Part shown: positions 383 through 24,077 of the stretch, piece by piece
Layout: each line of letters opens with the position of its first letter
Position numbering within the stretch: position 1 is the first letter of the stretch
Sequence record: MZ311865.1
DNA length: 64,000 nt
Origin: Escherichia phage vB_EcoM_LNA2
Strand: one strand, 5' to 3'
Program-made: the position numbers and the translations under genes
Notes under the pieces: generated by a model
The model's database searches: none
Seen by the model: the letters and a program-made list of their open reading frames with translations, nothing else
Told to the model about the DNA's origin: nothing

Positions 383-409
383 GTTTTACCTCCAGTAGTT
401 GATAGGTCT

Positions 410-438
410 ATAATAACATAACTATAGACCTTGTAAAC
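410..438 (-). promoter_or_regulatory. T4-type early promoter
   Basis: Minus strand GTTTAC (433-438), 17-bp spacer, TATTAT (410-415), upstream of the gene starting at 382. Confidence 0.6.
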
Positions 439-4737: not shown

Positions 4738-4872
4738 TTTACCATACTCGTTTCAATAAGATTCACTATGCCGTTTACCATGTTATAAGTAAACATCGGA
4801 TAATTGTATTGTACTACAACATAAGCGATAAGCAAAAGTTTCATTTTGTTCTCCGTTCGTTTTGATAGGACT

Positions 4873-4902
4873 ACTATAACATAGTCCTATCAAGTTGTAA
4901 AC
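4873..4902 (-). promoter_or_regulatory. T4-type early promoter with -10 embedded in a palindrome
   Basis: Minus strand GTTTAC, 18 bp, TATAGT; the -10 sits inside the inverted repeat ataggactaCTATAACATagtcctat. Confidence 0.6.
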
Positions 4903-5111
4903 TACCGATTGTGTTTTAAATGTTGATAAAGTTCTTCAACTTGTTTAGGGTCCAAAACAATTAAGTCATTTTCTTGACGAAGATAAATCCATCCCTTATC
5001 CCCAGGGCCATTTTTACAAAACATCACCGTCGTCATATCGTCATCTTCAGCGCTTTCAGGTAAAAGTTCAAGTACACCATCTTCAGATTTTCCAGTATAA
5101 TCGTAAAGCAT
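4902..5111 (-). CDS. hypothetical protein (69 aa)
   Basis: Track ORF 4902..5138; internal ATG at 5111 preceded by GAGGAT is preferred. Confidence 0.45.
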   Translation of the reverse strand: MLYDYTGKSEDGVLELLPESAEDDDMTTVMFCKNGPGDKGWIYLRQENDLIVLDPKQVEELYQHLKHNR

Positions 5112-5118
5112 AATATCC

Positions 5119-5298
5119 TCACATAATCTCGTTAACATACATTTGCAATTCGGTGTGCGTATCAGCCATCTTTTTCATAGCTCTGTTAATGTCGATGTCC
5201 CCATCTTCGCAACCATGAGCATTTTCCCAATCAGATACCGCATTAGCGTACTCTTCAATCAAAAACATTAACTTAGAAATTTTTTCTTTACGTGACAT
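5119..5298 (-). CDS. hypothetical protein (59 aa)
   Basis: Track ORF 5119..5367; in-frame ATG at 5298 preceded by GAGGAG; early promoter 5326-5354 upstream. Confidence 0.4.
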   Translation of the reverse strand: MSRKEKISKLMFLIEEYANAVSDWENAHGCEDGDIDINRAMKKMADTHTELQMYVNEIM

Positions 5299-5354: not shown

Positions 5355-5365
5355 TGCTAAATGCC

Positions 5366-5395
5366 AAAAAGCCCCAACCTTTCGGAAGGGGCTAT
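5366..5395 (-). terminator. hairpin terminator after rI
   Basis: aaaaagccccaacctttcggaaggggctat; GC stem with a U-run on the minus-strand transcript; identical 30-mer at 21363-21392. Confidence 0.55.
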
Positions 5396-11172: not shown

Positions 11173-11502
11173 TTATACTCTAGGCTTTTGAGCTTGTTTG
11201 GTATTGGATTCCCATGCGGCTTTGGTAATTTTGTTAGCGGCATAACCAAAGGCATTAGATAGAACACCTTTAGAGTTGAATACATCCAATCCAATAAGTA
11301 CACCGGCTGTGTTAAATTTAGGAGCAAAGTACGCATTAGTTTTAGAAAGAACTTTTTTCAATTCAGGGTCTTGAACCAAGTCATCAAAAACGCCTTTACT
11401 ATTTACTTTATATGTTACTTTGGGATTTTTACCTTCTTCGATAGCAGCTTTCTGTTCCGCAGATAATGTAACTTCAGTGATAAACTCCTGATATGTTTTC
11501 AT
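11173..11502 (-). CDS. internal-protein-family protein with capsid-targeting leader (109 aa)
   Basis: N-terminus MKTYQEFITE matches the T4 internal-protein capsid targeting sequence (cleaved by the gp21 prohead protease after the Glu). Confidence 0.7.
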   Translation of the reverse strand: MKTYQEFITEVTLSAEQKAAIEEGKNPKVTYKVNSKGVFDDLVQDPELKKVLSKTNAYFAPKFNTAGVLIGLDVFNSKGVLSNAFGYAANKITKAAWESNTKQAQKPRV

Positions 11503-11527
11503 TTTGTTCCTATTGTTTTAATTTATG

Positions 11528-11842
11528 TTATTCTTTAGGGAAGTTTTTAGAGTATGCATCATAAAGTTTATTACCAATACGGCGGAAGACTTTAGCTGCA
11601 AAACGGTTTTCAGGGTTTTTAATCATGATTTGCATCATGTAAGTTCCTGCATCCGAAAGAGCTTCTTCATAGTACCCATTAATTTCTTTAAGAGTCCTAC
11701 GTTTACCGCCAGGACCGTCAACAGTAATTTTCCATTTACCTGTAGAAGTGCGGCTCGGTGGCTCAACTTGTTCAATCCAAATATAACCGCCTTCAACGCG
11801 TTGGTTGGCGGATTCTGCAATAAATTCTTTATACGTTTTCAT
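11528..11842 (-). CDS. internal-protein-family protein with capsid-targeting leader (104 aa)
   Basis: N-terminus MKTYKEFIAE; early promoter at 11874-11903 with a perfect TATAAT. Confidence 0.7.
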   Translation of the reverse strand: MKTYKEFIAESANQRVEGGYIWIEQVEPPSRTSTGKWKITVDGPGGKRRTLKEINGYYEEALSDAGTYMMQIMIKNPENRFAAKVFRRIGNKLYDAYSKNFPKE

Positions 11843-11873
11843 TTTTTGTTTCCTTGTTTGTTTTGATAGAGTA

Positions 11874-11906: not shown

Positions 11907-12167
11907 TTAAGCTTTACCGCCAGAAATAATTCCGAAGTTGTTAAAATCGTATCCAATATCGTCAACATCTACTTTAGGGCTTGCTACAACATAAGCAATT
12001 TCACTACGTTTTGCATAGGTGTTGATTTCTTTACCATCGCCACCTAAGAAAGAATACCCATTACGTTTTAATGAGCCAAAGTCTTCCGCATCACCAATGA
12101 AAGCTTTAACTTTAAATTTAGGACCTTTGGCATCTGCTTCAATGATAAATTCTTGATACATTTTCAT
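11907..12167 (-). CDS. internal-protein-family protein with capsid-targeting leader (86 aa)
   Basis: N-terminus MKMYQEFIIE. Confidence 0.7.
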   Translation of the reverse strand: MKMYQEFIIEADAKGPKFKVKAFIGDAEDFGSLKRNGYSFLGGDGKEINTYAKRSEIAYVVASPKVDVDDIGYDFNNFGIISGGKA

Positions 12168-12173
12168 TTTTCC

Positions 12174-12645: not shown

Positions 12646-12927
12646 CTATTTTTCTGAAGCGCCTGAAATATATTTTTCAAGACGTTGTTTCATCAGCGAG
12701 CCGTTCTTAGCGATTTCTTCTGGTTTATCGCACATACGCAACAAGGCTTCAAGCTTAGCGATATCGCTGGTACGTTCAAATTTGCGAGTATCTATCTTAC
12801 TAGCAAGTTCAGAAATACGTGCTAATAGACTTTCAGCTTCAACCAAAGCTGCACCTAGCTTAGTTGCAAATGTGTCAGTAGCTTCGTTAAGAATAGATTC
12901 TGATAAAAATTCACTATATGTTTTCAT
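12646..12927 (-). CDS. internal-protein-family protein with capsid-targeting leader (93 aa)
   Basis: From the ATG at 12927: [10 protein letters not shown]...; its start overlaps the e stop (ATGA). Confidence 0.65.
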
Positions 12928-13412
12928 ATATACGCTTTCCAAGTTCCTGTTTTAAATGTTGAGATTACGCGTTTCGCGCGATTAGGTGTCTGACGATACC
13001 ATTTAGATTGGGCTAGATTTGCTGCCGCTTCATCCCAACGTTTCTGTTTAAGCATACGAAGAGAATTAGTAAAACCGGCGACTCCTGCTACACCCATTTG
13101 GAAGACCATATTGACCAATGCACACCGACGAACTGCATCTAAAGAATCATATACCGGTTTAAGTTTAGCATTACCCAAGATTCCGCGGACGGCTTTATCA
13201 ACGTCTTCATTAAATAGCTTTTCAGCCTCATCAAGGGTAATTGTACCGTTGCATTTACGACCGATCATTCTGTCAAGTTCAGCTTTAGCTACGGCTAAAG
13301 ACGGGTTCTTTGTTACTAAATGGCCTATGCCAATCGTCCAAAAGCCTTCAGTGTCTTTGTATAAAGTCAGTCTAAGACCTTCGTCATTACGAAGCATTTC
13401 AAATATATTCAT
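12924..13412 (-). CDS. e: lysozyme (endolysin), T4 e-type
   Basis: From the ATG at 13412: [32 protein letters not shown]... closely resembles T4 lysozyme as recalled, with catalytic Glu11/Asp20 context conserved; SD sits in a hairpin. Confidence 0.9.
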
Positions 13413-15612: not shown

Positions 15613-15638
15613 AATATTCTCCTCAAGTTGATAGGACT

Positions 15639-15668
15639 ACTATAACATAGTCCTATAATTGTGTAAAC
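15639..15668 (-). promoter_or_regulatory. T4-type early promoter with palindrome
   Basis: GTTTAC, 18 bp, TATAGT inside the same ataggactactataacatagtcctat palindrome. Confidence 0.6.
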
Positions 15669-15680
15669 AGTTTTGTGAAG

Positions 15681-16637
15681 TTATTTGAAAGGTTTTACCA
15701 TATGGAAATTTTGTTTGAAACGTTTTACGTAATCGTCGTGTCCTAAGCTTTGGTACATACTTACTACTTTGCTATAATTTTCCCAAGCGAACTCACGGAA
15801 CCAACCGGAGGTGATGCTTGTGCAGACTTTTTCTAATGCCATCATAAAACTATCACGCGGATGGATTTTAAAGTTGTTAGGAATCTGAGAACGTTCTAAT
15901 GCTAGTACACATGATTCTTCGTATACACCTGCCAATTTGACCATTTCTGGTAACGATTCGAACTTCTCGCGTGAGGTCATGACTTCAGAACCGTCTTTCA
16001 TGTAAAACGTATAAGCCGGACGGTCTGTTAGTGCAATGGCTTCATGAATAGTATCATGGTCATATGTATAGATGTCATCTTTAAAGAACGCACTTTTAGA
16101 AGTGTCAAGAACCGGGTGAGCATAGTTCAAAGTTTCTTTCTGGCGTTTCAACATAATTTCAGTAAGTTCATCGTTCAGTGTAACACCTTTACCACGAAGA
16201 TACTGAATATGGTTCATAGTCTTTAAAAAGAATGGATTATTTTTCTTGAAACGATGAGACATCTTAATTGCAAGACATATCTCAGGAGTTGCCCAGTAAA
16301 ACCCAGTCAAACGGTCTTTAGTCAAATTTTTCTTGGCGTATTTTAAAAGGTCATAAGAAGATGTGAAATCTTCAGGAGTGAGTTCACCGACTAATTCACG
16401 GACATTAGTGATTGCCGGAACAATATATGCTTCAAAATGAGTTTCACGTCCATTATGGAAGCATTTGAAAACTTGGACATCAGGGTTATCTTGGTGAACA
16501 TATACACCCATCATTTGATTTTTGAATGCATTCCAAGAACCTTGGTCCGCAATAAAGTCCCAATCGCTATTTTTGATAGCGCTAGAATCAATAAGACCAT
16601 GATAGTGAAGTGCACGAGAACCAATAACTAACATCAT
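15681..16637 (-). CDS. hypothetical protein (318 aa) with N-terminal NTase-like GS...D.D motif
   Basis: N-terminus MMLVIGSRALHYHGLIDSSAIKNSDWDF resembles the Pol-beta-type nucleotidyltransferase signature; weak, pattern-only. Confidence 0.55.
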   Translation of the reverse strand: MMLVIGSRALHYHGLIDSSAIKNSDWDFIADQGSWNAFKNQMMGVYVHQDNPDVQVFKCFHNGRETHFEAYIVPAITNVRELVGELTPEDFTSSYDLLKYAKKNLTKDRLTGFYWATPEICLAIKMSHRFKKNNPFFLKTMNHIQYLRGKGVTLNDELTEIMLKRQKETLNYAHPVLDTSKSAFFKDDIYTYDHDTIHEAIALTDRPAYTFYMKDGSEVMTSREKFESLPEMVKLAGVYEESCVLALERSQIPNNFKIHPRDSFMMALEKVCTSITSGWFREFAWENYSKVVSMYQSLGHDDYVKRFKQNFHMVKPFK

Positions 16638-16665: not shown

Positions 16666-16917
16666 TTAAATTTCACGACATGCGATATTATATTCATCCC
16701 AGAGGTCATCATGTGAAGCCTCTACCAATGGAACGATTGTACCGTTTATGTCTTCATTATAAGGGCAAATTGTACAGTGCGCATCTTCGAATCGGATGCC
16801 TTTGTGTTCAGATTTTTTATAACGCATATCGAATATCTTTGCAAACTTTTCACGAGTAATAGTTTTAGCAACTACTTCGGTTCCAATACTTTCGTAATAA
16901 ATCATTGTGGACTCCAT
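16666..16917 (-). CDS. hypothetical protein (83 aa)
   Basis: ORF track; early promoter at 16934-16963. Confidence 0.45.
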   Translation of the reverse strand: MESTMIYYESIGTEVVAKTITREKFAKIFDMRYKKSEHKGIRFEDAHCTICPYNEDINGTIVPLVEASHDDLWDEYNIACREI

Positions 16918-16933
16918 TTAATTTGATAGGACT

Positions 16934-16963
16934 ACTATAACATAGTCCTATCTTATTGTAAAC
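16934..16963 (-). promoter_or_regulatory. T4-type early promoter with palindrome
   Basis: GTTTAC, 18 bp, TATAGT inside the ataggactactataacatagtcctat palindrome. Confidence 0.6.
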
Positions 16964-19700: not shown

Positions 19701-19770
19701 ATTATTACCTTTCAATTGGTGGTTTATTATCCAATGAGAGCATTATACTCTGCTCTCAAGAGTTTGTAAA

Positions 19771-21318: not shown

Positions 21319-21362
21319 TGATGGTCCTTAGAAAGTAGGTTTATTGTTTACTATATTTATAC

Positions 21363-21392
21363 AAAAAAGCCCCAACCTTTCGGAAGGGGCTA
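21363..21392 (-). terminator. hairpin terminator downstream of the tRNA region
   Basis: Identical 30-mer to 5366-5395. Confidence 0.5.
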
Positions 21393-21440
21393 TGCCTTGC
21401 GGCAACCTTGTCGGGTTTCCACCTACTAGGTAAGTGTTTG

Positions 21441-21465
21441 TACGAAACGCCGGGATTCGAACCCG
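21441..21465 (-). pseudogene. tRNA 3'-half remnant (T-arm plus acceptor strand only)
   Basis: Minus strand reads CCGGG-TTCGAAT-CCCGG-CGTTTCG, a canonical T-arm and 3' acceptor strand, but no anticodon or D arm can be folded upstream. Confidence 0.3.
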
Positions 21466-21701
21466 GTTATTAAGCAGTTGACGCTACTCAATATTTTTAA
21501 AAGGCCATATCTCGACCATATCCGAACGTTCCGTCAAAAACGCTACTCGGCTTACGGCAAAGATATTTCCTCGAATCGATAATTCTGTGCGCCGTTTCTG
21601 CTGTGATGTAAGGGGGTATTAACAAATCGTAAAGATTTATTAAGACCAGTCCTTACTCAGGGAACATCAGTCCGACGTCTTGCCGGTAGCGACCCGGCTT
21701 C

Positions 21702-22046
21702 TTATTTTGGCATATCATCAATTTGCTCTCGACGCCGACGCCATAGATTAATCGCTTCATAAACACATTCAGCATTTGGTATATGGCGACAATAGTATAG
21801 TGATTCGCGTTTCTGGAACCGATGTTGTAATGGAATTTCGTTTAAAAGGTCTTTACGGTCAAAGTATTCAAAACTAGTTAACCCGGAACGGTTTTTAAGA
21901 AACTTCCAATGTCCGAATTCATTTTGAAAATAAACGTAATCAGCGTGTTGATATAACGAATTAATCAACCGGTCGGAAATAACTGTATCCTGTTCGTTAA
22001 AATAAAACGTTAAATCATGAACTACCAAATAAATATTGCCTTTCAT
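21702..22046 (-). CDS. hypothetical protein (114 aa) inside the tRNA region
   Basis: Track ORF 21702..22094 would overlap tRNA-Arg; the internal ATG at 22046 preceded by GAGGAAAA (MKGNIYLVVHDL...) is preferred. Confidence 0.45.
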   Translation of the reverse strand: MKGNIYLVVHDLTFYFNEQDTVISDRLINSLYQHADYVYFQNEFGHWKFLKNRSGLTSFEYFDRKDLLNEIPLQHRFQKRESLYYCRHIPNAECVYEAINLWRRRREQIDDMPK

Positions 22047-22064: not shown

Positions 22065-22141
<77 letters not shown>

Positions 22142-22144
22142 GAT

Positions 22145-22219
22145 TGGTGACCCTGGCTGGTTTCGATCCAGCTACCTATCAGTTATGAGCTGACAGCTCT
22201 CCCATTGAGCTACAGGGCC
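22145..22219 (-). tRNA. tRNA with CAT anticodon (Met, or Ile2 if C34 is modified as in T4)
   Basis: Hand-folded cloverleaf: acceptor GGCCCTG/CAGGGTC, D-stem GCTC/GAGC, anticodon stem GTCAG/CTGAT with loop CTCATAA, T-stem GCTGG/CCAGC, encoded CCA; 3 nt from tRNA-Arg. Confidence 0.75.
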
Positions 22220-23676: not shown

Positions 23677-23692
23677 TTGTTTTGATAGGACT

Positions 23693-23722
23693 ACTATAAC
23701 ATAGTCCTATCAGTATGTAAAC
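23693..23722 (-). promoter_or_regulatory. T4-type early promoter with palindrome
   Basis: GTTTAC, 18 bp, TATAGT inside the ataggactactataacatagtcctat palindrome. Confidence 0.6.
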
Positions 23723-23725
23723 TAC

Positions 23726-24013
23726 TTACAGAAGAGTTTTTGCAATAATTTTAAGCTGAGCTACAGAAATATGCTTAGCTTTAAACAGTGCAGTCTCTTC
23801 AGCCGGAGAGATAACAATAGTAGCGCCATCTTTCTTAGCAGACCATCCATCCCCTAAGTAAACAGTACCTTTTACTTCTTCACCATCAACCAGACTAATC
23901 ATTGGTTTACCCTCACGTCCTTTATTTGTTTTAATAACTTCAGAAGTAAGGGATGCTTCAGTCAGAGTAGAAACGTTAGCAACAGGTGATATAAATTCTT
24001 TATAGGTTTTCAT
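23726..24013 (-). CDS. ipI: internal protein I-like (capsid-targeted, ejected protein; anti-restriction candidate)
   Basis: N-terminus MKTYKEFISPV capsid-targeting leader; 95 aa; positioned before 57B as T4 ipI; early promoter at 24048-24077. Confidence 0.65.
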   Translation of the reverse strand: MKTYKEFISPVANVSTLTEASLTSEVIKTNKGREGKPMISLVDGEEVKGTVYLGDGWSAKKDGATIVISPAEETALFKAKHISVAQLKIIAKTLL

Positions 24014-24047
24014 TTTATTTCCTTGAGGTCGTTTATTTGATAGGATG

Positions 24048-24077
24048 ATAGTAACACGCCATCATCCTTATGTAAAC
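24048..24077 (-). promoter_or_regulatory. T4-type early promoter (ipI) with a different palindrome
   Basis: GTTTAC, 18 bp, TACTAT; the -10 is flanked by the inverted repeat aggatgat...atcatcct. Confidence 0.6.

Follow-up and report, generated by a model that had tools for sequence, protein, structure and literature searches.

The DNA analysed here, referred to below as the window, is a stretch of 64,000 nucleotides from Escherichia phage vB_EcoM_LNA2 (MZ311865.1), a Mosigvirus and RB69-like relative of T4. It shares 97-99% identity with Mosigvirus phages, including APCEc01, and 70-80% with T4. Its gene content runs from nrdC through tk, regB, the internal-protein (IP) genes, the tRNA genes, ipI and 57B into the structural genes, with the early genes carried on the minus strand. 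A 26-nt repeat that encodes the N-terminal leader of the internal proteins (MKTYKEF..) occurs five times (11480-11505, 11820-11845, 12145-12170, 12905-12930 and 23991-24016), which implies five genes of IP type, split between two loci and each served by an early promoter of its own. An Rfam search of the window returned two tRNAs only (22068-22141 and 22148-22219), compared with eight in T4, and no Rfam family matched the two small stable RNAs of the rnaC/rnaD block; at 21359-21707, this block takes in rnaC and rnaD and reaches the start of tRNA-Arg, and its identity to T4 is 91%, against 70-80% around it.

An inverted repeat around the −10 box of putative early promoters

A search of the whole window located the 26-mer ATAGGACTACTATAACATAGTCCTAT as exact matches at 4865-4890, 15631-15656, 16926-16951 and 23685-23710, confirming the four identical copies reported in the initial annotation; allowing up to 3 mismatches added no further copy in the window, and the number expected from 100 shuffles was 0. 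Read on the minus strand, all four copies have the form GTTTACA-N5-ATAGGACTA-TGTTATAG-TAGTCCTAT-CAA, in which the putative promoter boxes are TTTACA-17-TATAGT (18 nt if counted from GTTTAC) and the TG of an extended −10 is present. The combination of GTTTACA, TGn and TATAGT supports the earlier assignment of these copies as probable T4-type early promoters. The location of the −10 within an inverted repeat likewise held at all four copies and at the ipI-type promoter, where different arms had been noted and were found again, enclosing an 11-nt loop that ends in the −10 TACTAT. Two parts of the earlier description required revision. The "perfect palindrome" is an inverted repeat but not a perfect one, as an asymmetric 8-nt spacer, the prospective loop, splits its 9-bp arms, which flanking bases lengthen to 12, 9, 10 and 11 bp in copies 1-4, respectively. 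The list of promoters was incomplete, as the minus-strand elements 437 and 19770 share the same layout (Table 1).

The loop of the 26-mer holds TGn and most of the −10; the −10 fills the second half of the loop in the 3′ direction and ends on the first base of the adjoining arm. Box spacing elsewhere was TTTACA-17-TACTAT at the ipI-type promoter, TTTACA-17-TATAAT at element 19770 and TTTACA-16-TATTAT at element 437. Folding of the sense-strand RNA of the window hairpins gave predicted energies of −12.7 to −18.6 kcal/mol, with z scores of −2.0 to −5.8. Matches to the promoter pattern on the plus strand at 385 and 23668 proved to be mirror images of the inverted repeats and were discarded as separate promoters.

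Table 1. Stem-loop promoter elements of the window, all on the minus strand; arms and loops are listed in minus-strand order.
Element	Span	Strand	−35	−10	5′ arm	Loop	3′ arm	RNA fold	Surroundings
Copy 1	4862..4902	−	GTTTACA 4902-4896	TATAGT 4878-4873	TTGATAGGACTA 4893-4882	TGTTATAG 4881-4874	TAGTCCTATCAA 4873-4862	dG −18.6, z −5.3	−35 overlaps TAG stop of upstream ORF 4902-5138 at the G of GTTTACA; GGAG Shine-Dalgarno, then ATG at 4844; predicted start ~4866
Copy 2	15631..15668	−	GTTTACA 15668-15662	15644-15639	9 bp, 15656-15648		9 bp, 15639-15631		
Copy 3	16925..16963	−	GTTTACA 16963-16957	16939-16934	GATAGGACTA (10 bp)		TAGTCCTATC (10 bp)		
Copy 4	23684..23722	−	GTTTACA 23722-23716	23698-23693	TGATAGGACTA (11 bp)		TAGTCCTATCA (11 bp)		Directly after stop of internal-protein gene 23726-24013
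ipI-type promoter	24042..24077	−	GTTTACA 24077-24071	TACTAT 24053-24048	AGGATGAT 24068-24061	GGCGTGTTACT 24060-24050	ATCATCCT 24049-24042	dG −14.3, z −4.5	Serves an internal-protein gene
Element 19770	19735..19770	−	TTTACA 19770-19765	TATAAT 19747-19742	TGAGAGCA 19758-19751		TGCTCTCA 19742-19735		
Element 437	404..438	−	GTTTACA 438-432	TATTAT 415-410	AGGTCTATA 431-423		TATAGACCT 412-404		

All seven elements fill gaps between co-directional minus-strand ORFs, with the upstream stop codon 0-20 nt before the −35 and a Shine-Dalgarno sequence and ATG 20-45 nt after the −10. Of the ~22 plausible early promoters of the window, 7 had a perfect stem of 8 bp or longer, with arms from 4 independent sets that have AGGA..TCCT or AGGT..ACCT cores; such stems occur in 0.8% of 38-nt windows drawn at random from the sequence. 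Many of the other early promoters share the stretch following the −10 (..AGACCTATCAA) and lack a complementary spacer, indicating that the 3′ arm is largely promoter consensus and that it is the 5′ arm that makes the stem. Beside element 19770, the segment 19769-20012 has its T4 match in the frd.3 region (T4 146573-146816) and not at the syntenic position, so that a small module sits here in a different genomic neighbourhood.

The elements belong to the known promoter-early stem-loops

The elements are members of a class already described in T4-like phages, the promoter-early stem-loops (PeSLs). The name was introduced for RB49 and phi1, in which the stem-loop lies mostly between the −35 and −10 or overlaps the −10, mini-circles arise from recombination between copies, and one GC-rich RB49 stem terminated transcription in a lacZ assay, the only published termination assay cited (Arbiol 2010, PMC2839356). 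A comparison of PST with T4 and of nt-1 with KVP40 extended the class and derived a PST/T4 consensus of TTTACW-N17-TAYWAT with AGNA-loop-TCNT (Comeau 2014, PMC4122927), and both studies describe PeSLs as markers of cassette exchange points. As cited in these two papers, early promoters with stem-loops flank the IP genes of T-even phages (Repoila 1994). Older still is a T4 record of the 1980s (GenBank X03016), which annotates a "pot. stem-loop structure" over the −35 and −10 of PE2 and a "pot. stem-loop structure pot. IpI terminator" over PE1; the later T4 records NC_000866 and AF158101 contain no promoter annotation, and one deposited phage genome annotates the element as "terminator".

Like PeSLs, the window elements are composites of promoter, stem-loop, Shine-Dalgarno sequence and start codon placed between genes, each of the seven lying in a co-directional gap that ends in a Shine-Dalgarno sequence and start codon. 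Their putative boxes are 16-17 bp apart in all seven, close to the ~17 bp of the class, and their predicted stem-loops have arms of 8-12 bp, with AGGA...TCCT matching the stem part of the PST/T4 consensus; the elements fit the promoter part of that consensus as well. They are also repeated in the genome (family D1 with seven copies and D2 with five), concentrated in variable regions and found at indel junctions of close relatives, APCEc01 and LF82-3 among them. By contrast, stems in RB49 are GC-rich, of the type G(n)/C(n), and the sigma-70 boxes there are close to consensus, while the stems described here are AU-rich and lack a U-tract; terminator and mini-circle activity have been shown only for RB49/phi1, and Mosigvirus lies outside the phage pairs analysed in the PeSL studies.

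Further close counterparts are the elements of the T-even IP loci, at which IP cassettes are likewise swapped. As far as they are described in the citing papers, they appear to share the layout of an early promoter of T4 type overlapped by an AT-rich inverted repeat, placed on either side of the IP genes. Copy 4 and the element at 24042..24077 flank the ipI-type gene exactly as PE1 and PE2 flank ipI in T4, PE2 being the T4 orthologue of the latter element. Arbiol 2010 suggested that the T-even elements may limit the shuffling of IP genes to IP loci. Unlike those elements, the ones in the window also occur far from IP loci, at 4865, 15631 and 16926.

Pairing is kept while the arm sequences change

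Stems of 7-14 bp surround the −10 of the ipI, ipII, ipIII, mobD.2, dmd, motB and cd.3 promoters in T4. At T4 57989, the orthologue of copy 1, and T4 73938, the orthologue of the ipI-type promoter, the stem is kept and the arms differ, so that the structure proposed in the initial annotation is present in homologous promoters of relatives. Element 19770 differs from the T4 motB promoter (GGGACCA/TGGTCCC) by two compensatory pair changes, and the APCEc01 orthologue of element 437 carries a G·T at the loop-closing pair. A separate minus-strand promoter of APCEc01 (surveyed locus L006, position 5754), just outside the region covered by the window, has 14-bp arms, ACGATAGGAAGATA / TATCTTCCTATCGT, round a TATTAT −10 and is the longest stem seen in this Mosigvirus relative.

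We then surveyed the neighbourhoods of 57B, tk, dexA and cd in T4-like contigs, together with the window, T4 and APCEc01 (3.63 Mb in all). These protein-anchored loci were used instead of an earlier pattern scan of viral contigs (GTTTACA-N17-TATAGTA), in which the matches listed were mostly chance ones in unrelated contigs. Promoters were picked by regular expression with a Shine-Dalgarno/ATG filter rather than mapped, yielding 1034 distinct regions. Helices of at least 8 Watson-Crick pairs were found in 21% of these regions compared with 4.0% of random 40-nt windows, and helices of at least 9 pairs in 15% compared with 1.4%; the 187 distinct helices fell into 91 arm families. Given that only about a fifth of early promoters have a strong helix, promoters can function without the stem, and not all gene boundaries require it.

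Nor is the enrichment confined to promoters. Among gaps of 50-75 nt, helices of at least 8 bp occurred in 45% of those containing the promoter pattern and in 39% of those lacking it; for random 62-mers the figure was 9%. In gaps between co-directional ORFs of loci L127-L307, the enrichment was thus about four-fold even without a promoter pattern, which indicates that intercistronic stem-loops are general in T4-like early regions and not a property of promoters.

For covariation, 47 distinct sequences in the register of the window element were aligned. They had been selected for at least 7 pairs, which inflates the percentage paired and makes that figure partly circular, but leaves the variety of pair types unaffected. 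In this fixed-register alignment (n = 47), 10 of 12 pairs change on both sides and the inner seven pairs are never unpaired, while controls slid out of register pair at 33-50%. The covariation score was 0.635 versus 0.262 in shuffles, a value reached by 0 of 500 shuffles. One pair displays a full compensatory path, being A-U in the window, G·U in APCEc01 and locus L129, and G-C in loci L208 and L236. Complementarity maintained through change in both arms, across 91 arm families, argues for selection on structure, as the initial annotation had proposed from the two arm sets it compared.

Gene-cassette indels fall at the elements

The indels that distinguish the window from APCEc01 are located at these promoters. 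One is a gene cassette of 263 bp, additional in APCEc01, whose junction is at 15662-15668, within the −35/spacer of copy 2, and the window promoter at copy 2 is a hybrid whose upstream part matches one of the two APCEc01 promoters and whose downstream part matches the other. Conversely, the cassette at 1905-2119, flanked by promoters 1913 and 2191, is absent from APCEc01; the promoter repeats that bound it overlap by ~64 bp in the alignment, a signature of recombination between promoter copies. At copy 4, an additional IP gene is present in LF82-3, bounded there by three elements that each have a different arm set, and other relatives replace the IP gene. Copies 2 and 3 form direct repeats 1295 bp apart that flank a two-gene cassette (ORFs 16666-16917 and 15681-16637); a mini-circle formed between them is predicted to measure 1295 bp.

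Wobble pairs are strand-asymmetric

Our helix finder weighs all mismatches alike, and the non-Watson-Crick pairs inside the helices were nevertheless strongly unequal, with 59 sense-strand G·U pairs (G·T/T·G) and 13 A·C/C·A pairs, or 42 and 12, respectively, when counted per family and position; chance helices had a G·U:A·C ratio of 175:153. Because each Watson-Crick pair is one transition away from either type, the neutral expectation is 1:1 unless mutation is strand-biased, and against this expectation the G·U excess had P = 2e-8 at the helix level and P = 3e-5 at the family level. At sense-strand four-fold sites, (T×G)/(C×A) was 1.4-1.9; measured against the largest such composition bias (65.5% G·U), the excess had P = 0.0016 (helix) and P = 0.036 (family). 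With a family-level excess over this bound of only P = 0.036, part of the G·U excess could be mutational. The wobble bias fits an RNA hairpin or a DNA hairpin formed by the sense strand only, whereas a symmetric protein site or a cruciform would not give such a bias. An RNA hairpin formed in transcripts that read through is thus the better-supported reading, ahead of an operator for a protein or a cruciform. G-T pairs in the stems are highlighted in figure 2 of Arbiol 2010 (PMC2839356); the strand-asymmetric pattern itself we did not find reported there or in Comeau 2014, and it is our sole addition to the known class.

These data bear first on the possibility that the stem acts as DNA, as a cruciform or single-strand hairpin that is either a target for structure-specific recombination, for example by endonuclease VII or a recombinase that would make PeSL mini-circles, or a modulator of promoter melting. 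The indel junctions at the elements would suit such a role, the two strands fold about equally in silico, and one mini-circle crossover was mapped to the loop by Arbiol 2010, who speculated on a stem-binding recombination protein. A cruciform, however, needs both strands paired, and the imperfect pairs at 59:13 are G·T on the sense strand and A·C on the other; AT-rich arms of 9-12 bp with an 8-nt loop are also short for extrusion. Plain homology of 40-60 bp suffices for T4 recombination at repeats (Arbiol 2010, discussion), and gaps lacking the promoter pattern show an equal enrichment of hairpins. We therefore regard a DNA structure as unlikely, although it fares best among the alternatives.

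It is less probable still that the stem has no function and is a by-product of gene conversion among promoter copies combined with a partly self-complementary consensus. The 3′ arm is indeed largely post −10 consensus, present even where the 5′ arm is missing, the four identical copies point to recent homogenisation, and ~80% of promoters lack a strong helix. But conversion copies sequence and cannot create complementary changes in two arms, and the observed enrichment over chance (5-fold for helices of at least 8 pairs and 10-fold for those of at least 9) is accompanied by many independent compensatory double changes with G·U intermediates.

We give small odds to a factor that may read the −10 stem as DNA by its structure and not its sequence, for which the factor that shuts off T4 early promoters within minutes of infection or a cassette-excising recombinase would be candidates. 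The sense-strand G·U bias argues against such a DNA-level reading, although a dual role is possible; were it true, DNA shape would be the means by which some of the early genes are co-regulated or mobilised.

The initial annotation had also offered a dimeric protein-binding site over the −10, that is, an operator at which a phage or host protein would shut off or tune a subset of early promoters. The identical arms at four promoters of one genome would be in keeping with this, and the T4 factor that shuts off early transcription is still unnamed (Hinton 2010). No conserved half-site was found, however: at least four unrelated arm sets occur in the same genome and 91 families in relatives, orthologous promoters keep the pairing and not the sequence, the wobble pairs are strand-asymmetric (59 G·U versus 13 A·C), and the arms are separated by an asymmetric spacer that contains promoter elements. 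A sequence-specific dimeric site is accordingly very unlikely.

Inverted repeats with covarying arms are part of the recognition site in the hairpin promoters of the phage N4 virion RNA polymerase and in Frpo of the F plasmid. In N4 a dedicated polymerase recognises the hairpin itself, and in Frpo-type promoters the hairpin rebuilds a duplex promoter on single-stranded DNA. The elements of the window differ from both in being, by their boxes, duplex sigma-70 promoters with full −35/TGn/−10, 80% of whose sister promoters are stemless.

The hairpin is expected in read-through RNA and lacks the U-tract of a terminator

With the −10 of copy 1 at 4878-4873 and the standard sigma-70 spacing of ~7 nt, transcription is predicted to start at ~4866, the A of ATCAA at position 25 of the 26-mer, which places the 5′ arm at about −25 to −17. 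The promoter's own transcript would then contain just the last bases of the 3′ arm and neither the loop nor the 5′ arm, so that only read-through RNA from the upstream gene could form the hairpin. This geometry conflicts with the other suggestion of the initial annotation, in which the RNA made from this promoter would begin with the hairpin. Protection of bacterial mRNAs by stable 5′ hairpins is known, but a stabiliser or translational element of this kind is hardly credible here, as the −10 sits in the loop and first 3′-arm base, and a start 6-8 nt downstream (26-mer position 24-26) leaves the 5′ arm and loop untranscribed from the promoter, so that the two arms do not both lie downstream of the predicted start.

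Across 219 helix-bearing promoters, the median distance from the upstream stop codon was 3 nt to the −35 and 11 nt to the 5′ arm. A hairpin a few nucleotides past a stop codon resembles an intrinsic terminator; unlike one, it has an AU-rich stem and no U-tract. A terminator scan of the sense strand called no window copy, only 4 of the 219 related helices had at least 5 T within 8 nt after the stem, and the tails were A-rich. The missing U-tract, together with a stem that is not GC-rich, rules out a canonical intrinsic terminator, and efficient termination by E. coli RNA polymerase at AU-rich stems of this kind is doubtful. Canonical terminators do exist in the window, at 5361-5395 and 21359-21393 on the minus strand. 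They are duplicates of a 35-nt unit (AGCCCC..GGGGCT stem followed by T5 on the sense strand) with 94% identity, 16 kb apart; the first abuts the early promoter 5353, which itself lacks a −10 stem, and the second marks the start of the rnaC/rnaD block with its 91% identity to T4.

Stable hairpins without a U-tract past a coding region are also found as 3′ or intercistronic structures that block exonucleases, as in REP-like elements and trimmed Rho-dependent ends. By analogy, the window stems may be comparable in their position, in the missing U-tract and in the apparent selection on the sense strand, and differ in overlapping a promoter. A link with RegB processing was rejected, as a GGAG Shine-Dalgarno sequence followed 49% of hairpin promoters and 45% of the others (P = 0.39). 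Our literature search for maps of T4 transcript ends found none.

Discussion

Taking these observations together, we consider it probable, at roughly 0.7, that the element is, in a single unit, a PeSL-type early promoter, an intercistronic RNA hairpin and a patch of homology. As we envisage it, the element would combine an inverted repeat with a strong early promoter of T4 type (GTTTACA, 17-bp spacer, TGn, −10) that serves the downstream gene, with the 5′ arm located in the promoter spacer, the 3′ arm in the conserved stretch after the −10 (..AG(A/T)CCTATCAA), and the loop carrying TGn and most of the −10. The hairpin would form in read-through RNA of the upstream gene, ~11 nt past the stop codon of that gene, where it would most likely be an intercistronic 3′ structure. 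There it could attenuate or pause read-through; alternatively, it could block 3′-to-5′ exonucleases and thereby give the upstream message a defined, stable end. Wrapping the arms round the −10 may represent a compact way of fitting a hairpin into a gap that is otherwise all promoter. At the DNA level, the near-identical 40-60-bp cassettes would double as homology patches, recombination between which may insert, delete and swap small genes.

The wobble pattern suggests that the stems are selected in RNA and not in DNA, which narrows the question of what role T-even-type stems without a U-tract play. The boundaries of the elements are in turn useful for annotating and engineering such phages, since it is there that small accessory genes and IP genes are gained and lost.
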